DNA from: a bacterium
GTDB lineage: Bacteria; RBG-13-61-14; DATKZS01
Assembly (NCBI GenBank): GCA_046484135.1
Contig: JAWOBU010000269.1
Location: 401 to 64,400 of the forward strand
Direction: 5' to 3'
DNA: 64,000 nt
A program made the position numbers and the translations under genes. Each line of letters starts with the position of its first letter. Position 1 is the stretch's first letter. The notes beneath the pieces are model-generated. The model saw only the letters and a program-made list of their open reading frames with translations. It ran no database searches and was not told where the DNA came from. Positions 1-31,790 of this stretch are shown here, one piece after another.

Positions 1-103
1 AGGGATAACCCGGCGGGGCTCATCAGACGATGAGAGGGGCGTAGGGATTTCCCCTGCGCCCACCCGATAAATCTCTCATCGGATGATAGACCCCTTATGC
101 CTC
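1..103 (-). repeat. Window-truncated second copy of a ~100-nt hairpin-forming repeat module (homologous to 20575-20677, opposite orientation)
   Basis: Reverse complement of 1-103 aligns almost base-for-base with 20575-20677; differences concentrate in the apical loop and include a compensatory stem change. Confidence 0.75.
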
Positions 104-128
104 AAAAAACTCCCGCCCGAAGGGCGGA
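103..128 (-). terminator. Rho-independent terminator after the 165-416 gene
   Basis: Minus strand reads CCGCCC-TTC-GGGCGG followed by GAGTTTTTT, about 40 nt after the stop codon at 165. Confidence 0.55.
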
Positions 129-164
129 AACAAAGGCAGTGAGTACCACCATCGTACTCACAAA

Positions 165-2488: not shown

Positions 2489-3169
2489 ATGGAAGTATTA
2501 GCTGATGCCTTGAAGAAGAAGTCCCATAGTCTCTCCGAGTATGATTCCAAGCGGGTCTTGCAGGAGTACGGCATACCGGTTACCAGAGAGCGCCTGGTGC
2601 GGGGTCAGAAGGACGCGGTGGCGGCCGCGGAGGAGATAGGCTACCCGGTGGTGATAAAGGCGACCGGTCCCGAGCTCACCCACAAGACGGAGATGGACGC
2701 CATCCGCTTGAACCTCGCAGACGCCAAGTCTGTCCGGCAGGCCGTACGCGAGCTCAAGGAGGCAACCAAGGGCGAAAAGATTCAGGGGCTGGTGGTCCAG
2801 GAGATGGTAAAGGGCCGGCGCGAGCTGGTGTTGGGTCTCATCCGGGACCCGCAGTTCGGTCCCTGCGTGATGTTCGGCCTGGGAGGCATCTACACGGAGA
2901 TTCTCCGCGACGTGTCTTTCCGGGTGGCGCCCCTCTCCGAGCGGGACGCCCTCGAGATGATGGACGAGATCAGGGGCAAGAAAATCCTGGACGCGGTCCG
3001 GGGGATGGCCGCGGCCGATCGCCAAGCCCTGGCCGAGTCCCTGGTGGCCCTGGGCAGGATCGGCATGGACCAGGACGAGGTCAAAGAAATAGACGTAAAC
3101 CCGATGATCCTGACCGGGGAAGGCCGGCCGGTGGCAGTGGACGCCCTGGTGGTATTAAAAAGCCAGTAG
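2489..3169 (+). CDS. ATP-grasp protein resembling the beta subunit/domain of ADP-forming acetyl-CoA synthetase
   Basis: 226 aa. LSEYDSKRVLQEYGIPV ... GYPVVIK ... VVQEM ... EIDVNP pattern typical of ATP-grasp_5/AcdB; ATG with GGAAGG upstream. Confidence 0.65.
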   Translation: MEVLADALKKKSHSLSEYDSKRVLQEYGIPVTRERLVRGQKDAVAAAEEIGYPVVIKATGPELTHKTEMDAIRLNLADAKSVRQAVRELKEATKGEKIQGLVVQEMVKGRRELVLGLIRDPQFGPCVMFGLGGIYTEILRDVSFRVAPLSERDALEMMDEIRGKKILDAVRGMAAADRQALAESLVALGRIGMDQDEVKEIDVNPMILTGEGRPVAVDALVVLKSQ

Positions 3170-3231
3170 CCCACACAGAGGTCTGTTAATAAGCGGCGGT
3201 AGCCCACTTCCGTTGCAGGGCTCTTTGGAGT

Positions 3232-4296
3232 TTGACAAGCCATTTTATATCCGGAGCGAACAAGACGCCATCTACGGACAGTAAAATATCAAGGGCATCG
3301 AAGAGCTTGATTAAAAAGGCCGGCGGCCGCCCGCTGAAGCTGCTGTATCAACAGGCCCTCCTCAGGTACTCCTCCGAGGTCCGGAACCTGTCGCCATACG
3401 CGCCGAACCCGCGGATCGTCCTGCTCGAACTCTCCAGCCTGTGCAACCTCCATTGCCCCAAGTGCGCGCTCAAGGCGACCAGGCGCGAAAAAGGGCTCAT
3501 GCCCGCGGAAAAGGCCATGGAGCTGATAGACCGGTGCAGCGAAATCAGTCCCGACATCATTAACCTGTCCATGCTGGGAGAGCCGCTCCTGCACCCGGAG
3601 GCAGAAAGGATCGTTTCTTATGCATCGGGCAAAGGGTTTCCGGCCGGGCTTACCACCAACGCCATTCTCCTTGCCCCGGAAAGGTCGAAAAAGCTCCTGC
3701 AAGCCGGGATCAAGTTAATCGTGGTTTCCATAGACGGATGGGACCGCGAGTCGAACGCAAAGCGCCAGCACGGCGCCGACCTGGACAAGATGCTTTTCAA
3801 CCTGAATAAACTCCGCGAGATGCGAGGAAAGAGCGCAAAACCCCGCATCGTGGCCAACACCATCTGGGACAGGGAATGCCTCGAGCATCTTTCCGAAATA
3901 AAAGCGCTGCTCGCTCCCTACGTGGACGACATCCGCCCCATTCCCCTCATAGACTTCGGGGTCCCCGGCCATGAAATAGACCCCGCTCTTGTGCCCGGAA
4001 CCAGATCGTGGAAAAGAGTGCCCTGCCGCTACCTGTGGAACATATTGAGCATCGGGTGGGACGGAGCGGTCACAGCCTGCTGCAGCGACTACGCCTACAT
4101 GCTGAAATACCACCACGTAGACTTAGCCCCCCTTTCCGAAATATGGAACAGCGAAAAGATAAGAAAATGGCGCGAGCTTCATATCGAGGGCAGGTTCAAC
4201 GAAATGCCCATGTGCGGCAGGTGTACAAAAGACTATCTCGATTCCTTTGCCTTCTACCGGCTGAAAGACCGCTTCCATGGAATCGAGGTAAGCTAA
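3232..4296 (+). CDS. Radical SAM enzyme with a C-terminal SPASM/twitch-like Cys cluster
   Basis: CNLHCPKC (CxxxCxxC) plus a C-terminal C..C..CC....C..C region. Track start is TTG; the true start is uncertain. Confidence 0.65.
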   Translation: MTSHFISGANKTPSTDSKISRASKSLIKKAGGRPLKLLYQQALLRYSSEVRNLSPYAPNPRIVLLELSSLCNLHCPKCALKATRREKGLMPAEKAMELIDRCSEISPDIINLSMLGEPLLHPEAERIVSYASGKGFPAGLTTNAILLAPERSKKLLQAGIKLIVVSIDGWDRESNAKRQHGADLDKMLFNLNKLREMRGKSAKPRIVANTIWDRECLEHLSEIKALLAPYVDDIRPIPLIDFGVPGHEIDPALVPGTRSWKRVPCRYLWNILSIGWDGAVTACCSDYAYMLKYHHVDLAPLSEIWNSEKIRKWRELHIEGRFNEMPMCGRCTKDYLDSFAFYRLKDRFHGIEVS

Positions 4297-4337: not shown

Positions 4338-4415
4338 TGGCGGGGCCGACGGGACTTGAACCCGCGACCTCTGGCTTGACAGGCCAGCGTTCTATCCGGA
4401 CTGAACTACGACCCC
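4338..4415 (-). tRNA. tRNA-Asp (anticodon GTC), CCA encoded
   Basis: Manual cloverleaf: GGGGTCG acceptor, GTTCAGTCCGGATAGAAC D-arm, CTGGC-CTGTCAA-GCCAG anticodon arm, GGTTCAAGTCC T-arm, ends GCCA. Confidence 0.9.
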
Positions 4416-4479: not shown

Positions 4480-4552
4480 TAGGCGGGACAGGGATTGAAC
4501 CTGCGACTTTCGGCTTGTAAGGCCGACGCTCTCCCAACTGAGCTACCCGCCT
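4480..4552 (-). tRNA. tRNA-Val (anticodon TAC), CCA not encoded
   Basis: Manual cloverleaf: AGGCGGG/CCCGCCT acceptor (7 bp), GCTCAGTTGGGAGAGC D-arm, TCGGC-CTTACAA-GCCGA anticodon arm, GGTTCAATCC T-arm. Confidence 0.9.
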
Positions 4553-4681: not shown

Positions 4682-5731
4682 TCAACCAGGGGGATTAGCC
4701 GGTATGAGCCCTGCGCCGGGAACGTGAACACGATATTTTTGCGGCGCGAGCATTTCAAAGGACACGGACACACTGAGAAAGCTTTTTATGACCTCGGCGT
4801 GGGTCCGAGTGTGCTCGGTGACTTCAGAGGTCAAGAAACTTCCGCCTTGCCCCAGCGCCAGCGGCAGAAGCAACTGGTCTGCCAGCCGGGGATCAACCGG
4901 CACCCGGGTCCGGACAAAGTTTTTCGCCTCCCGCGCCGCTTCCCTCGCGACCCGCTCCGCTTTCTTGCCCGGCTGGCCAAAGCCGGTTATAAGGACAGTC
5001 CGGTCTCCCGACTCATACCTTATGAGAAGGGCATTGCCGGGCCCCACTTCGCCGGGAAGCACTCGCGTGTGGACAGAGGCGGGGTCCAGCCCCAGCCGCT
5101 CCGAAAGCTCCATCTGCTCTCGGTCCGCAACGTGCTCCGGCAGGTTGCTTATCAGGACCTCGCAATCGGGCCCCCGCCAGTCCGTCTCCTCTTCCAGCCG
5201 GAGAGGCGAAGAAAAACGCCAGGGACGCACAACCGCACGGAGCGCGCCGCCTCCCCTCGGATAAAAGCCGTGCCTGATAAGCTCGACCTCTGCGTCCATG
5301 CCCAGCTTGCGGACCTCGGGAAGGAAGCACTCCGAAAGGTACTCCACCGGCGGCGCGCCCGGGTTATGGGTCCCGCCGTGAATGGTTATCACGCTCTCGT
5401 CCTTTCCGAAAGAGAGTACCGGCAAAAGGGTCTGGAAAACCAGCGCAGTGCTTCCCGCGGTGCCTATCTCGAAGCTGTACCTGCCCGGCCGAACTTCGCC
5501 CGGCTCGAACTCGAGATCGCCGGAGAAGCGCTTGGCCCCTGTTGCCGTGCCCTTAACCACCTTGTTTATTGACCGGACCGCGGAGAGGTGCTGGGGCTGC
5601 AAACCGGGCTTGGAACGGCGCGAGCGGATGTTCTCCATCTTAAGACTGCGGCCCGAAACCGCGGCCAGGGAAAGCGCGCTCCGGAGTATCTGCCCTCCGC
5701 CCTCGCCGAAACTGCCGTCAATAAATATCAT
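4682..5731 (-). CDS. rtcA: RNA 3'-terminal phosphate cyclase
   Basis: 349 aa. N-terminus IDGSFGEGGGQILRSALSLAAVSG and overall length are typical of RtcA. Confidence 0.85.
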   Translation of the reverse strand: MIFIDGSFGEGGGQILRSALSLAAVSGRSLKMENIRSRRSKPGLQPQHLSAVRSINKVVKGTATGAKRFSGDLEFEPGEVRPGRYSFEIGTAGSTALVFQTLLPVLSFGKDESVITIHGGTHNPGAPPVEYLSECFLPEVRKLGMDAEVELIRHGFYPRGGGALRAVVRPWRFSSPLRLEEETDWRGPDCEVLISNLPEHVADREQMELSERLGLDPASVHTRVLPGEVGPGNALLIRYESGDRTVLITGFGQPGKKAERVAREAAREAKNFVRTRVPVDPRLADQLLLPLALGQGGSFLTSEVTEHTRTHAEVIKSFLSVSVSFEMLAPQKYRVHVPGAGLIPANPPG

Positions 5732-5874
5732 AACCGCTCCCGCGCCGGAGGTCTCGACTCGCGAAGAATGAACATATCCTCCTCCGGCTTTTCAAGCCCC
5801 TATGATAATAGCGCCTTTGCTTAAAAAAAAGTCCTTCCGGGCCGGGAATGCATAAGATAAGCTCTTTTCGGTGA

Positions 5875-5902
5875 TTGACACTGCCGGTGAAGCGTTTATA
5901 AT
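5875..5902 (+). promoter_or_regulatory. Near-consensus sigma70 promoter upstream of rplC
   Basis: TTGACA (5875-5880), 16-nt spacer, TATAAT (5897-5902); GAAAGGAGAG RBS and GTG start follow. Confidence 0.5.
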
Positions 5903-5944
5903 AAATAGTTCAGTTTTTCCTCACGGCAGAAAGGAGAGTCGGCG

Positions 5945-6607
5945 GTGATTGAAGGAATAATAGGCAAGAAGCTCGGAATGACCAGTATATTTGACGAAGC
6001 GGGCCGGATGATACCGGTTACGGTCATCGAGGCGGGGCCGATAACGGTGATGCAGATCAAGACCCCGGAGCGGGACGGCTACGCCGCCTTGCAGGTGGGG
6101 TTCGAGGACAAAAAGCTTCAGCGGGCCACAAAGCCCGAGATAGGCCGGGCCCGGAAGTCCGAGACCAGTCCCAAGAAGGTGATAAAAGAGGTCCGCATCG
6201 AACCGGAGGAAGTTGCGAACTATAAGCTCGGCCAGGCGTTAAGCCTTTCCGAGATGCCGTTTGCCAAGGGAGACTTGGTAGACATAATCGGCAAGAGCAT
6301 CGGCAAAGGCTTCAGCGGGGTAATGAAGCGTCACAACTTCTCCGGCGCCCGCGCGACGCACGGGACCCACGAGTACAAACGGCATGGCGGCGCCATCGGC
6401 CACTCCGCGGACCCCTCCCGCGTGTTCAAGGGAAAAAAGATGGCAGGCCAGCAGGGCAATAAAAGAATCACGACCCAGAACCTGGAGATCGTCGAGGTCC
6501 GGCCGGAAGAGAACCTGATCATGATTAAAGGAGCGGTGCCCGGCCACCGGAACGGCATTTTGAAGATAAGAAGCGCCAAGAAAAAGAAAGCCGGCCGGGC
6601 CGCTTGA
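5945..6607 (+). CDS. rplC: Ribosomal protein uL3 (stand-alone copy)
   Basis: GKKLGMTSIFDE.G..IPVTVIE ... FKGKKMAGQQGN ... IKGAVPG match the L3 pattern. GTG start with RBS; no rpsJ or rplD neighbours. Confidence 0.85.
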   Translation: MIEGIIGKKLGMTSIFDEAGRMIPVTVIEAGPITVMQIKTPERDGYAALQVGFEDKKLQRATKPEIGRARKSETSPKKVIKEVRIEPEEVANYKLGQALSLSEMPFAKGDLVDIIGKSIGKGFSGVMKRHNFSGARATHGTHEYKRHGGAIGHSADPSRVFKGKKMAGQQGNKRITTQNLEIVEVRPEENLIMIKGAVPGHRNGILKIRSAKKKKAGRAA

Positions 6608-9199: not shown

Positions 9200-10344
9200 C
9201 AGCGTTCCTCCAAAAGCTCGATGAACTCGTCGAACAAACCAGCCGCGTCGTGCGGTCCCGGCGAAGCCTCGGGGTGGTACTGCACGCTCATGACGGGCCT
9301 CTCAAGATGCTGCATCCCTTCGCACGTCTTGTCGTTCAAGTTAAGGTGGGTCATTACCAGGTCAGTGCCTTCTCGCTCGACCCAGTCGGTGGGCACGGCA
9401 AAGTTATGGTTCTGGCTGGTGATGGCGACCTCCCTGGTGCGCAGGTCCATGACCGGATGGTTGGCCCCGTGATGACCGAACTTGAGCTTCAAAGTCTTGC
9501 AGCCCATGGCCAGGCCCAGAAGCTGGTGCCCGAGACAGATGCCGAAGAGGGGAAGCTCGGGTTTCCGGTTCATGATCTCCCGCACCGCCTGGAAAGCGTA
9601 CGGCACGCCTTCCGGGTCGCCCGGGCCGTTGGACAGGAATAGCCCGTCCGGCTGGTGCGAAAGGATGGTTTCCGCGTCAGTGGACGCTGGCACAACAACC
9701 ACCCGGCAGCCCCGGTCGGAGAGCATGCGCAGGATGTTGGTCTTGATGCCGAAGTCCATGGCCACTACCGTAAAGCGCGGTTCTTGCTCCGGCCTGCAAT
9801 GCCCGGTCTCGAGCTTCCAGGTGCCTTCGTAAAACTCGTAGGGTTCGGCGCAGGTGACCTCTTGGACCAGGTCGCGGCCCACGATCTCGGGCGCTTCCCT
9901 CACCGTCGTCAGAAGCTCGTCCGGGTCGCGCTCGCCGGTGGCGATGATACCCGGCATGCTGCCTTTGTCGCGAATAAGCCGGGTGAGGTACCGGGTGTCA
10001 ACTCCCTCGATGCCGATAATACTGTTTTCGACCAGGTAGTCTCTCAATGTCATGGCAGAACGGAAGTTGCTCGGATAGTCAATGCACTCCTTTACAATGA
10101 AGCCGTTTAAGTTCACCGCGGATGACTCCGTATCTTCCGGGTTGACACCGGTGTTTCCGATCTCGGTGTAGGTCATGGTGACGATCTGGCCGTAATAGGA
10201 AGGATCGGTCAGAATCTCCTGGTAGCCGGTCATGCCCGTGTGGAAGACGACCTCTCCGATGGTCTCGCCATCCGCGCCAATGGACCGGCCCGACAACACG
10301 GTACCGTCCGCCAAAACCAGCGTGGCCTTTTGTCTACTCTTCAA
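9199..10344 (-). CDS. carA: Carbamoyl-phosphate synthase small (glutaminase) subunit
   Basis: LVLADGT...[27 protein letters not shown] (Cys nucleophile), QYHPEA. TTG start preceded by GAGAGGTGA. Confidence 0.85.
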
Positions 10345-20285: not shown

Positions 20286-20536
20286 TTTGCCGACCCTTGT
20301 CCGTAAGTGGTTCTAAAGCATTGGAACTATCCATTCCATCATCCGCCCGAGCTGACTTTTGAAAAAGTTTCCAGGATAAAGAATGTGTATGTTCGACTAG
20401 TGTAGTGTCACACTCTGTTTGATCCTTATTAATTCAGTGTAAAGGTTACGGGAGCACCTATGCGATGACAGCTTTCCCTCGCCCTTTCAATATAGACCTA
20501 TGTCCGACCGCTCTCTTGTTTCCGCCCTTTGGGCGG

Positions 20537-20574
20537 CCTGCCTGCCGCGCTACGGCGCAGGCAGGGGGTTTTTT
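20537..20574 (+). terminator. Inward-facing intrinsic terminator just inside the left end of the element
   Basis: CCTGCCTGC...GCAGGCAGG stem followed by GGGTTTTTT on the + strand; preceded by a second small hairpin CCGCCC-TTT-GGGCGG. Confidence 0.5.
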
Positions 20575-20677
20575 GAGGCATGAGGGGTCTATCATCCGAT
20601 GAGATTTATCGGGTGGGCGCAGGATGTGTTTCCTACGCCCTTCTCATCGTCTGATGAGCCCCACCGGGCTATCCCTT
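20575..20677 (+). repeat. Structured ~100-nt module (candidate ncRNA or DNA hairpin), copy 2
   Basis: Rod-like fold: 20584-20596 with 20650-20662, 20597-20604 with 20642-20649, 20615-20623 with 20632-20640. The second copy is at 1-103. Strand of function unknown. Confidence 0.5.
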
Positions 20678-20755
20678 GGCGGGTTGCTCCCCAGCAGAGC
20701 CCGCCTCCGTTTGACCCGGCAAAAACATATTAGCATCCTAACAATATCAAGGCAA

Positions 20756-21526
20756 TCACTCGGCTCCTCCCAGTTCGTCATCAATGGCAAGGTACTCGCG
20801 CACCAACGACAGGCCCATGTTAAGCGTGTAAGCGGTCTCCTCCACGCCAAGGCCTTGAAGTCGGCAGTGGCGTACGCGGTCGTATTGACCCAGGTAGCGG
20901 TCTACCGACTCAAGGCTGTGATAGGTTTCCTCCGCGATCTGGTGCGGCTCCTTGCCTTGGGCGTAACGCTTCAGGCAAATTATCCGCTTGTGGGTCAGGC
21001 CGCTGCCCATGTCGTGAAGAGTGGAGCGGCGAGGAACGATCTTGCCCGTCTTCCGTTCGTGCTCGCAAAGCAAAGAAGCTATTCCGCTGTCAGTGATATT
21101 CATCATCATGGCAAGGTCGCAATTGGACAATAACGCCCCCTGCTCGTAGGCCTGGCGGCACAAACGCAGGGCCTTTTGCAGATGCCTTTCTCGATATCCG
21201 GTCCTTTCCAAAATCAAATCGAGGTCTTCGGGTGTCACCAGATCAAGGACCACGGGAACAAGATCGCTGTCCCGGGTGAGTCGGTATTGCTTCGGCGGAT
21301 CGTTGATGGAATAGCCGAGCCAGAGAACCTGGCCGTGGCTCAAGTTCTCGCGGGAACGCACGTGATCGTCGATCACTTCAAGGACCATGTCGGCGCAAAG
21401 ATCGAGGATGCGAGCGCCACCGAGCCGAGGGAACTCCTTGCCGATCTTGTGGGCAAGCGCGGCCCGCAAGTCCTTGTCCTTGAGCGGGAGGCACTTCTTG
21501 GACACGTAATCAACCTTGCCGCCCAT
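20756..21526 (-). CDS. DUF1670-like helix-turn-helix protein (paralogue B, 256 aa)
   Basis: ATG at 21526 with AAGGAG 8 nt upstream. Motif QGALLSNCDLA...IVPRRSTLHDMGSGLTHKRII plus a second HTH-like segment. Family name is from memory only. Confidence 0.6.
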   Translation of the reverse strand: MGGKVDYVSKKCLPLKDKDLRAALAHKIGKEFPRLGGARILDLCADMVLEVIDDHVRSRENLSHGQVLWLGYSINDPPKQYRLTRDSDLVPVVLDLVTPEDLDLILERTGYRERHLQKALRLCRQAYEQGALLSNCDLAMMMNITDSGIASLLCEHERKTGKIVPRRSTLHDMGSGLTHKRIICLKRYAQGKEPHQIAEETYHSLESVDRYLGQYDRVRHCRLQGLGVEETAYTLNMGLSLVREYLAIDDELGGAE

Positions 21527-22229
21527 GGCCGACGCTCCTTGTTCTTTTTTTCCCCCGGGTCCGGCCGAGTCGCAAAAGCTCGTCAAGGTGGTAACTCATG
21601 TTCTTGTCGCCCTCGCATTCGTTCAAAAGATCGAGGTAATGCTTGATGAGGCCGGGCCCGCGCTTGAGAAGGAAGGCGATCTGACCGACCTGCATCTCCT
21701 GCCGGGCCAAGTGAGCGCACCTTGCGAACGTGGACAAATAGTTGGCCACCGCCTCCGGAGAATGGCGCATGATGCTGCAAATCTGGGTCGTGGTCTTTCC
21801 TTGAAGAGCAAGGCGGATGATCTGCACTCGATGGGTCAACACCGGCCCGATGTCATGCACCGTGCTCCGCAGAGGAAGCGGGACCCCGGGATCGGCCTGC
21901 CTGAGCCAAGAGAGGTCCCGGGTGATGGTGCGAGTAGAGACGAAAAAGATGCGATAGGCAAGGTCCTCGCGGGTCAGCAAAGCTCCCTGGCTCATCGCCT
22001 CTTGGCACAGCTTGGGAATTTTAGTTCTTCTAAACGAGGACGCTCCTTGCCGGCAAAGAAGCTCGTCGTCTTGTACACCATTATGAACGGTAAGGTGGAC
22101 CGTCCGCTTCTCGCAATCCACCACCGGCTTGCCCGCCGGCTCGTCAGCGCTGACCGCCACGAGCGTGATTTTGCCCGGATGACCGGTGGGAGCCTCACGG
22201 TCAATGAACGGTAAATACACTGACAACAT
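21510..22229 (-). CDS. DUF1670-like HTH protein (paralogue A), main frame
   Basis: Homologous to 20756-21526 from FIDREAPTGHPGKITLVAV onward. The region upstream of 22229 in this frame looks non-coding (Arg-rich). Confidence 0.5.
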   Translation of the reverse strand: MLSVYLPFIDREAPTGHPGKITLVAVSADEPAGKPVVDCEKRTVHLTVHNGVQDDELLCRQGASSFRRTKIPKLCQEAMSQGALLTREDLAYRIFFVSTRTITRDLSWLRQADPGVPLPLRSTVHDIGPVLTHRVQIIRLALQGKTTTQICSIMRHSPEAVANYLSTFARCAHLARQEMQVGQIAFLLKRGPGLIKHYLDLLNECEGDKNMSYHLDELLRLGRTRGKKRTRSVGHGRQG

Positions 22230-22356
22230 TAACAACCGCCTCCGCCTCGAAAGGCGAGCAGTTAAGCCCGTGCTGTACTTCGTTTTTGAACCTGGCATCA
22301 AGCGTCTTGCACTCCAGCCTGAGCAACTCCTCCCTGCTTTGGTTGCGTATACCCAT
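22201..22356 (-). CDS. 51-codon ORF likely encoding the N-terminus of paralogue A in a different frame
   Basis: ATG at 22356 has AAGGAGGTG 5 nt upstream. The product (..REELLRLECKTLDARF..FEAEAVVNVV) aligns with the N-terminal helices of paralogue B; overlaps the main frame by 29 nt. Confidence 0.4.
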   Translation of the reverse strand: MGIRNQSREELLRLECKTLDARFKNEVQHGLNCSPFEAEAVVNVVSVFTVH

Positions 22357-22534
22357 CGCAACACCTCCTTTCCATATGCCAATATAATGTATAAATTACC
22401 GGTGGGACATATGTCTAGAAGGGTAGGGCGGAAACAAGAGAGCGGTCGGACATATGTCTATATTGAAAGGGCGAGGGAAAGCTTAAAAGGAATTCATAAG
22501 TGCCAAACAAAGTGATACACTAGCTCCCGTCCGC

Positions 22535-22728: not shown

Positions 22729-23001
22729 ATGAGCAAAAAGATACCTGAGTTTAAAAACGAAGAGGAAGAGCGGGAGTTCTGGTCAAAGCATGACTCCACC
22801 GAGTACGTGGATTGGGAAAAGGCTGAACGCGCAGTGCCTTCTAAGTTGAAACCCGCGTTGAAGACCATTTCGATCCGGCTGCCCCTGTCCATGATCGAGG
22901 AACTCAAGCTCCTCGCCAATAAAAAAGACGTGCCCTACCAGTCACTTTTGAAAATCTTTCTCGCGGAAAGAATCCGAGAGGAGAGGCAGTCTTCCAAGTA
23001 A
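22729..23001 (+). CDS. BrnA-like / ribbon-helix-helix antitoxin (orphan)
   Basis: 90 aa. EEREFWSKHDSTEYVDW...ISIRLPLSMIEELKLLANKKDVPYQSLLKIFL is the BrnA-type pattern; no intact toxin gene upstream. Confidence 0.6.
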   Translation: MSKKIPEFKNEEEEREFWSKHDSTEYVDWEKAERAVPSKLKPALKTISIRLPLSMIEELKLLANKKDVPYQSLLKIFLAERIREERQSSK

Positions 23002-30929: not shown

Positions 30930-31790
30930 GGAGTGCGGTGGCTTGCCGCCGCTTTGTGTCAGGGAGCTTGCTCCCGGTTGCCTTTCTTCCAGCTCCAACG
31001 GAGCGCCGTATATTAGCCAGGGGTTTTAACCCCTGGAAAAATGGGTATGGTTATGGCGCGTCCTGAAGGGACGCTGGAGTCCGTGGGATCGCGGGCGTCC
31101 CTGTCTGCGTGCGGACACGCACAGGCAGGCCGCCCGCTCTTGTTCTGCGGCCGAGACGGCCGCGTTCCCGGCCATTCTCCGCCGTCCCTTTGGGACTTGA
31201 GATGCTGGTCTTGATCGTGTCTGGAAGTCGCTCGCACAGGGGAGATGGGAGGAAACGCAACGGCGCTATGACGCAAGGGAAGAAGGAATATATTTTCAGC
31301 TAACGGAACAAAGACATATCGCGACTGAAGTCGCTCGCACTAAAGTCATGTTGAAAAAAAGAACCGTTGCGGCGTTGTGTCGTTGCGTTTAGAGCCAGGC
31401 TGGTGCTTGGCGGTCCCGGGGGAATTTTGCCAGGCTTCCGCCTGGCGGTCCCGGGGGGAGTTGCGTTTGGAGCCAGGCTGTGCTTATGGTGGGAGAGACC
31501 TCCAGGTCTCGATTATCGTGAGCAGGAGCTCACTCCCACCCGGATAGGCTATGCAGGCGGCGAGAAGCCGCAGGATGAAACCATCCTGTGCCAATGGCAC
31601 CCGGATAGACGAGCTATCCGGGCTACCGATCCATCCTGCGCTTTTTTCAACCGCCAGGCTGGAGCCTGGCGCTCCCAGGTTTTTTTGCCGGGCTCCCGCC
31701 CGGCGGTCCGGGGGGCAGGGCTCAGGCCCTTTCAACCAACTTCATCCTCACAACATCTTCCCTGAATATCCCTCCTGAAGCCTGCGCATG
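30930..31790. repeat. Non-coding mosaic of more than 20 short GC-rich hairpin repeats (REP-like cluster)
   Basis: Includes GCCRGGC-N4-GCCYGGC(GGTCCCGGGGG) units at 31393, 31428, 31653 and 31687; a CGCGACTGAAGTCGCTCGCAC unit at 31320; a 53-nt junction module at 31488-31540; a 28-nt direct repeat at 31381 and 31460. Confidence 0.65.

Follow-up and report, generated by a model that had tools for sequence, protein, structure and literature searches.

We report here that a 64,000-nt stretch of bacterial DNA (contig JAWOBU010000269.1, positions 401 to 64,400; hereafter the window) contains a 1.93-kb insertion sequence (IS)-like element of 1,934 bp at ~20490-22423 on the minus strand, with its A end at 22423 and its B end at 20490. 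The locus belongs to an IS-like family, apparently undescribed, whose members (1.7-1.95 kb) carry two overlapping reading frames for the paralogous proteins DUF1670-A (~282 aa) and DUF1670-B (~256 aa). Members of this family are mobile and insert into the loop of short GC-rich stem-loops similar to repetitive extragenic palindromic (REP) sequences. No known transposition enzyme was recognised in either protein, and we lean slightly towards the view that the DUF1670 A/B pair is itself the transposase of the family and supplies the chemistry of transposition. The copy in the window is a decaying and defective member. Novelty was judged against the NCBIfam IS-family models and the literature searched.

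Distribution and mobility of the family

A pattern search of one genome per species yielded 48 loci, which span Planctomycetota, Acidobacteriota, Lentisphaeria, Deltaproteobacteria, Nitrospiraceae, and Ca. Uhrbacteria. Protein searches retrieved 1,290 homologues of B and 1,571 of A, and an exhaustive search gave 880 DUF1670 clusters at 50% identity. Near-identical copies with defined ends, the generic mark of an IS, are present in four long-read genomes (six, four, three, and two copies). In one long-read Phycisphaerae genome there are six copies, which share 99-100% identity across 1,929 bp; a single 2.17-Mb contig holds four of these. One Acidobacteriota genome carries four copies of a 1.70-kb form at 97-99.9% identity. 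Where several copies reside in a single genome, their flanks are unrelated to each other. Most of the metagenome contigs bearing A and B are ~2 kb long, as expected of dispersed repeats collapsed by the assembler.

Two loci contain copies that are split by kilobases of foreign DNA (L001, at 757-1368, 3004-3292, and 4973-6036; L040, at 2609-3266, 4973-5587, and 9728-10172), and therefore nested insertions or rearrangements have occurred inside elements. Loci L004 and L011 form a sublineage in which the A tip reads CCATACCT in place of ACCTTCYA, and no match to the RNA model described below was found in them despite their length of 1.94 kb.

Termini and insertion sites

Nearly all members carry the palindrome GACATATGTC near both ends, separated from the tip by 8 nt at the A end and by 5 nt at the B end. 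A search of the retrieved loci with the sequences bordering each insertion allowed occupied sites to be matched with empty paralogous ones in three genomes. With a slash at each junction, the occupied site GCTGCCCC/element/...CTTC GGGGCGACAG corresponds to the empty site GCTGCCCCttcGGGGCGACAG, and an extended occupied site, ...GGCTGCCCC T/ACCTTCTA-GACATATGTC ... GACATATGTC-CGGAT/CTTC GGGGCGACAG..., corresponds to ...GGCTGCCCCttcGGGGCGACAG... when empty. The element is inserted into the loop of a short GC-rich REP-like stem-loop, the usual site being GCCC[CT]TCGGGGC (hairpin GCCCC-TTC-GGGGC) and a hairpin of the target type being GCCCCTTCGGGGC. Because the element sits in the loop, the apparent GCCCC...GGGGC "terminal repeat" is in fact the stem of the target.

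The flanks of 28 of the 40 distinct insertions are perfectly complementary over at least 5 bp at a fixed register, as compared with 2.7 in shuffled controls and 9.6 when flanks were re-paired among loci. The stems differ by lineage and yet co-vary: GCCCC/GGGGC, ACGCC/GGCGT, GCCCT/AGGGC, CGGAT/ATCCG, and, in the window, CGCCCT/AGGGCG. If the A tip is placed 8 nt and the B tip 5 nt outside its palindrome, the two flanking dinucleotides agree in 32 of 39 insertions. Of these 32 matches, 25 have CT and only two have TA; among the nine sites other than CT, seven match, with six different dinucleotides. The 2-bp flanking repeat is either a target duplication or a 2-bp crossover core. Empty sites and a target duplication, which are generally looked for in an IS, are thus represented by the paralogous empty sites and the 2-bp repeat.

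The insertion flanks in L002/L003 (3881-4097 and 6035-6079) are long palindromic REP doublets, in which one hairpin has received an element and the inverted counterpart ~150 nt away has not; this arrangement parallels the palindromic context in the window.

The two DUF1670 proteins

Gene B of the window (20756-21526, minus strand) is intact and encodes 256 aa that match the whole PF07900 (DUF1670) profile (E 1e-47, 162.8 bits), and its product is 94% identical to P0001. Its reading frame overlaps the end of the co-oriented gene A by 17 nt. Gene A (21510-22356, minus strand; start ATG at 22356, stop at 21510) is a pseudogene: the loss of 5 nt between 22220 and 22221 has thrown the first 45 codons out of frame with the rest, as determined by tblastn with the intact 283-aa orthologue P0271 and by DNA alignment with L050/L051; the main open reading frame (ORF) with the DUF1670 match (E 2.4e-37, 128.9 bits) spans 21510-22229. 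The gathering threshold of the profile is 25 bits. A and B are paralogous over their whole length (hhalign probability 99.2%, 27% identity), and each is 60-70% identical between phyla, with many invariant polar residues. PF07900, which was described from Methanosarcina proteins, has no function assigned, and homologues of A and B are currently labelled as hypothetical, CsgD-family regulator, or DUF1670 protein.

The AlphaFold models of the two proteins (predicted local distance difference test score 82.6 for B and 71.7 for A) have the same plan: N-terminal helices, a two-stranded beta unit, and about four helix-turn-helix (HTH) units. Both paralogues have an acidic residue after each of three short strands (E74, D99, and D133 in A; D76, D101, and D137 in B), and they have in common an inter-HTH loop, R-S/A-T-x-H-D-x-G-x-x-L-T-H-R/K. 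The three acidic residues and the R-S/A-T-x-H-D loop are candidate active-site elements.

Some homologues have a different architecture. P0142, P0146, P0148, and P0153 (930-952 aa) are single polypeptides with three DUF1670 matches, and Pfam confirms three units each for P0142 and P0146; the contig encoding P0142 is 3.4 kb long, suggesting a variant of the element in which three units are fused. These fusions suggest that DUF1670 units act together. P0121 (400 aa) and P0131 (348 aa) are DUF1670-B homologues with a C-terminal DnaG-type CHC2 zinc ribbon (PF01807), which is either a true fusion or a read-through into the neighbouring gene.

Search for a known transposition enzyme

Searches of A and B with Pfam, NCBIfam, PDB profiles, and Foldseek revealed no family or fold of the DDE, DEDD, HUH, serine-recombinase, or tyrosine-recombinase type. 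No NCBIfam IS-family model matched at the locus, although residues 134-170 of gene A gave a weak NCBIfam match (E 0.09) to the first 38 positions of an IS630 profile. Foldseek on the A and B models returned nothing below E 0.1, and the profile search of PDB sequences returned only a marginal uL10m match (two sequences at E ~0.0013, with per-domain E >1). A phage, defence, or plasmid origin was dropped, since PHROG gave no significant match (a weak one had E 0.062), PADLOC gave none, and tblastn of 72,556 plasmids and 50,697 phages detected no homologue. The shortest active-looking members (1.70 kb) hold only the two DUF1670 genes and the ends. A hidden catalytic gene was also considered and discarded, the antisense ORFs of three elements being without any Pfam domain. 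In the literature searched, neither DUF1670 nor PF07900 is mentioned, so that nothing there names the family as a transposase or ties it to mobility, and nothing relevant to the palindrome was found.

An earlier note on this DNA, made by reading the sequence alone, had described two overlapping co-oriented paralogous genes, likened their products to DUF1670, and seen no DDE, HUH, serine, or tyrosine recombinase signature. The family and fold searches agree with it on the enzymes and the Pfam search on the domain, and the paralogy holds as well, except that gene A is broken by the 5-nt deletion. The earlier note had taken the locus for a mobile element without recognisable machinery or a non-autonomous one carrying regulators, which accords with the multi-copy relatives, the empty sites, and the lack of a known enzyme. 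Of the opposite possibility that it had named, a single-copy unit encoding mere regulators, the first half is contradicted by the multi-copy relatives, whereas the second half stands in so far as the proteins model only as HTH arrays.

A structured RNA at the 3' end

Most members have a structured sense RNA of ~170-200 nt between gene B and the B end. In an alignment of 16 lineages, 96.5% of the cells pair, as compared with ~46% when the partners are slid, and compensatory changes are found in 13 of 31 pairs, a number reached in none of 500 shuffles. The strand of the RNA can be told from its G-U pairs and is that of the genes. A 23-nt core hairpin, GGGCUCUGCUGRGGAGCAACCCG, is nearly invariant across phyla and is present in the window as GGGCUCUGCUGGGGAGCAACCCG at 20680-20702 (minus strand). 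When the lineage of the window was left out in building a covariance model of the 5' domain, the sole window match of the model was at exactly this position (20680-20702, minus strand; E 8e-6); the model finds 27 of the 37 elements tested. In the window the module occupies 20584-20720 (minus strand), between the B end and gene B, and represents a lineage variant of the family RNA with a fold z-score of -6.6, which bears out the structured module that had been noticed there by eye. The 3' half of this lineage differs from that of the others; it is common to L050-L057, L048, and L031 and folds strongly. The short members of 1.70-1.73 kb are without the RNA and yet are multi-copy.

Rfam contains no family near threshold for the window element or one related element, the best scores being 14.7-15.6 bits where the thresholds are 34-137 bits. 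We also rejected the idea that CUGAUGAG in the module marks a hammerhead, because the motif is not conserved in L052 and Hammerhead_II scores 15 bits against a threshold of 37. The 3' region shows no excess complementarity to the element's own target (mean longest match 6.65 nt, as compared with 6.61 nt for the targets of other elements). Given this result and the lack of the RNA in multi-copy short members, we favour a role for it in regulation or as a cofactor over one as a guide.

Additional copies of the RNA were also observed. A second, partial copy of the 3' module together with a CCGCCCTTCGGGCGG hairpin, truncated by the start of the window, occupies positions 1-135 (plus strand) and is 89% identical over 111 nt. 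In place of a B terminus, it gives way to unrelated sequence containing a GTGAGTAC...GTACTCAC hairpin; this copy is either what is left of a further element or an RNA gene standing alone, like ssr9 of ISPpu9. Two longer elements, L109 (2,265 nt between palindromes) and L165 (2,254 nt), have two copies of the 5' domain of the RNA.

Possible mechanism of transposition

If the A/B pair is the transposase, a hetero-oligomer of the two proteins would bind the two palindromes and synapse the ends, would recognise the target as an extruded or single-stranded hairpin, and would itself cleave and join the DNA with a 2-nt stagger. The chemistry would be carried out by a catalytic site of a kind so far unrecognised, for which the conserved acidic residues and the inter-HTH loop are the candidates. 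The A-end palindrome lies just upstream of the start of gene A, where it would probably serve autoregulation, the operon being repressed by its own proteins. A more far-reaching proposal is that A and B represent a new class of transposase or recombinase, consisting of tandem HTH units and a small beta-hairpin domain and unrelated to the DDE, DEDD, HUH, serine, tyrosine, and Cas1 enzymes, which recognises DNA hairpins by their structure, inserts into the loops with a 2-nt stagger, and in most lineages uses the RNA as a cofactor or regulator; we put this forward tentatively, at a little short of an even chance.

Several observations weigh against catalysis by A and B. The candidate active-site residues were chosen from alignments and not from three-dimensional positions, the empty sites are paralogous REP copies and not orthologous empty alleles, and the 2-bp repeat could be the crossover core of a conservative recombinase and not a duplication. 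Moreover, the flanking dinucleotides of the window copy itself are unequal (TA vs TG), and both proteins model only as HTH arrays with a small beta-hairpin domain. The last point would suit a non-autonomous element, in which A and B only recognise the termini and the target while the breaking and joining of DNA is left to an enzyme of the host or an unlinked one, such as a REP-associated Y1 transposase, a Xer-type recombinase, or the transposase of another IS. Elements hijacking host recombinases do exist, such as the IMEX elements. Furthermore, the family targets REP-like hairpins, for which many bacteria have dedicated enzymes according to two reports (PMC3333891, PMC2817692). However, the same two-gene unit with its termini looks active in very different phyla, including Ca. 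Uhrbacteria, which makes a shared helper enzyme unlikely, and the conservation of polar residues in the non-HTH N-terminal domain exceeds what the binding of ends would need. To our knowledge, HUH enzymes make no 2-bp flanking repeat, which also speaks against such a helper. We consider dependence on an outside enzyme the main alternative, although less likely than catalysis by A and B.

By analogy with the bridge RNA of IS110, the seekRNA of IS1111, and the omega RNA of IS605, the 3' RNA might instead pair with the target hairpin or the ends and direct the DUF1670 proteins. The strong covariation of this sense RNA beside the B end in 27 of 37 elements, its core hairpin maintained across phyla, and the high site specificity of insertion would all be in keeping with a guide. 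In contrast, the members of 1.70-1.73 kb are without it and still reach four copies at 97-99.9% identity in one genome, complementarity to an element's own target is no higher than to the targets of other elements, and the same RNA core occurs in lineages with different target stems. An RNA-guided unit is accordingly improbable in our judgement.

Structure of the copy in the window

The tips of the window copy were placed by analogy with the occupied and empty sites of its relatives. Homology with the closest relatives, L050 and L051, ends at 22429/30 and 20481/90, with 93% nucleotide identity in between. L049-L051 are metagenome contigs whose gene B product is 94% identical to that of the window; this group carries an intact 283-aa gene A, and its flanks are unrelated to the window flanks. 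The A terminus (22406-22423, minus strand) consists of the GACATATGTC palindrome at 22406-22415 and 8 terminal nt, reads CCCTTCTA-GACATATGTC on the gene strand, and is a motif that nearly every related element, whatever its phylum, carries at its gene-A end. The B terminus (20490-20504, minus strand) consists of the palindrome at 20495-20504, which is mutated to GACCTATGTC in contrast to GACATATGTC at the same position in L050/L051, and the 5 terminal nt ATATA. With a frameshift in gene A and a mutation in the B-end palindrome, the window copy is probably immobile. One close relative (L049, 1824-3480) ends abruptly after gene B, without the RNA and the B end, and adjoins a 507-aa gene on the opposite strand.

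The most conspicuous feature of the window copy is a 59-nt inverted repeat (20470-20528 and 22425-22483), which is 98% complementary with one mismatch; weaker outer arms extend the alignment to ~20399 and 22521, with a 28-nt insertion in the left arm. As read from the alignments, this repeat is composed of two parts of different origin, an inverted duplicate of the B terminus and an arm of a palindromic target. The left target arm, AGCTTTCCCTCGCCCTTTCA (20470-20489), lies outside the homology with relatives, and its CGCCCT at 20480-20485 is half of the target hairpin stem. The right target arm, TGAAAGGGCGAGGGAAAGCT (22464-22483), is its reverse complement. Joined together, the two 20-nt arms form a perfect palindrome, which is the kind of site used by the family, with a 6-bp complementary stem at the usual register. 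Between the A end and the right arm lies an inverted copy (22425-22463, plus strand) of the 39 nt at 20490-20528, which breaks off precisely at the loop of the CCGCCCTTTGGGCGG hairpin within the element (20522-20536) and is missing from the closest relatives, L049-L051. The order on the plus strand is thus outer arm, AGCTTTCCCTCGCCCTTTCA arm, element from B to A end, TA, 39-nt inverted copy, arm, and outer arm. The outer left arm (20399-20469) is ~72% similar to the reverse complement of its counterpart, the outer right arm (22484-22521), apart from the 28-nt insertion; both belong to the same palindromic target and look like older palindromic or MITE-like target DNA (MITEs being miniature transposable elements with inverted repeats) outside the element, and no further copy of them was found within the window.

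For the 39-nt duplicate, the best explanation is that a break at the A end was mended by snap-back repair templated by the other target arm. After a break at the A-end junction, the freed target arm would pair with its inverted twin across the element and would be extended through the B terminus as far as the hairpin before rejoining. Another idea, in which the extra B end stems from nested insertion of the element into a second copy, at that copy's terminal hairpin, was set aside as the simplest account: the DNA to the left of the B end argues against it, being the second arm of the palindromic target rather than the remainder of another copy. Such an insertion would also need a subsequent deletion, and hence more steps than a single snap-back event.

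The duplicate and the target arms together account for the long terminal inverted repeats (TIRs) perceived in the earlier note, which had taken the whole 2.1 kb (20397-22523) as the mobile unit, with TIRs over 100 bp long, termini reading TGTA...TACA, and CTAG as a possible target duplication. The near-perfect 59-nt core with its single mismatch is real, the outer arms do align, albeit weakly, and CTAG is present on both flanks as part of the inverted repeat. However, the nearest relatives, whose flanks are unrelated, share nothing with the window outside 20481-22430, the tips are 5-8 nt from the palindromes in every other lineage, and the outer arms are without a second copy in the window. 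The arms are target DNA plus the duplicated B terminus; TGTA and TACA lie within the target-derived arms, as does CTAG, and the family repeat is 2 bp. As this DNA is outside the homology with relatives, CTAG as a duplication and TGTA/TACA as termini were rejected, and we regard a 2.1-kb unit bounded by long TIRs as very improbable. The three palindromes reported earlier fared better: GACMTATGTC occurs at 20495, 22406, and 22449 and nowhere else in the 64-kb window (chance expectation 0.09), with the qualification that the left one is a mutated GACATATGTC.

Inside the B end, the CCGCCCTTTGGGCGG hairpin at 20522-20536 is followed by a second hairpin (20537-20565) and a run of T6 (20569-20574), so that 20522-20574 on the plus strand looks like a terminator pointing into the element, as had been claimed. 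The hairpin and T6 are visible, but a simple terminator scan did not call them, and relatives have the first hairpin only. The extra 29-nt hairpin is not a dispersed repeat, there being no second copy within the window. Of the accessory context described earlier, the efflux operon and the antitoxin are confirmed: to the left of the element is an operon for resistance-nodulation-division (RND) efflux, and to its right a CopG-type antitoxin gene (22729-23001, plus strand; PF12441, E 7e-31). No toxin ORF was found in the ~200 nt upstream of the antitoxin gene, just beyond which lie the palindromic target and the element. Elsewhere in the window, Rfam scans detected an Acido-Lenti-1 RNA at 30991-31036 (minus strand; 41.2 bits against a gathering score of 37) and two tRNA genes at 4341-4415 and 4480-4552 (minus strand).

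Implications

Known prokaryotic transposable elements move by one of few enzyme classes. The minimal 1.7-kb form encodes nothing other than two paralogues, and thus the family would represent either a catalytic class not seen before or a novel means of exploiting the machinery of the host, in elements that are widespread in many phyla and recently active. If the proposed role is true, it would give a function to DUF1670, a family of thousands of sequences in ~880 clusters at 50% identity, whose genes are currently annotated as CsgD/LuxR-type regulators. A system for structure-specific integration into hairpin loops could be tested as a genome-engineering tool. The family also adds a conserved RNA that is not in Rfam, and it explains the ~2-kb orphan contigs that are common in soil, sediment, and freshwater metagenomes.

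Relation to known insertion sequences

IS1397 and ISKpn1, of the IS3 family, are enterobacterial ISs specific for the loops of REP-type palindromic units, and IS1397 produces a DDE OrfAB transposase by programmed frameshifting. The present element is similar to these in its insertion into REP loops, its very short target duplication, and its small size with two ORFs. Unlike IS1397, however, it has no DDE/RNase H domain, its two ORFs are paralogues of each other, and its termini are built on a 10-bp palindrome. More generally, the RNase H-like domain with a D,D,E triad that characterises IS3, IS630, IS5, IS4, IS256, and similar families was not found in A or B, nor was the resolvase- or integrase-type catalytic domain of elements with serine or tyrosine recombinases (IS607, integrative elements). 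Insertion of ISs into REP-type sequences is reviewed as a general phenomenon in PMC1525189. ISPpu9, as described in PMC12288879, is also REP-targeted and has a non-coding RNA gene downstream of its transposase gene, with solitary RNA copies elsewhere. The family resembles ISPpu9 in REP targeting and in high site specificity, and the module at positions 1-135 of the window is comparable to the solitary RNA copies.

The 2-bp repeat is reminiscent of IS110, whose recombination reportedly uses a 2-nt core. In contrast to IS110/IS1111, A and B contain no DEDD recombinase or RuvC-like Tnp domain, and the RNA, which has no Rfam match, is missing from short multi-copy members and shows no complementarity to the target of the kind expected of a guide. 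IS630 transposases have a C-terminal DDE domain and duplicate TA. The 2-bp flanking duplication and the tandem-HTH DNA-binding region are shared with the IS630/Tc1/mariner group, whereas the DDE domain is lacking, and in place of a TA target duplication the dinucleotide is mostly CT and varies with the target. IS200/IS605 elements and REP-associated tyrosine transposases have an HUH Y1 enzyme, subterminal hairpins, and no target duplication; here no HUH domain or fold was detected in A or B, and a 2-bp repeat is present. ISDol1 has one ORF and 6-7-bp repeats, unlike the present element. ISDol1 is treated as having a catalytic-domain model in PMC8147514. Taken together, the element appears from its sequence to combine partial resemblances to the IS3, IS110, and IS630 systems while being a member of none of them.

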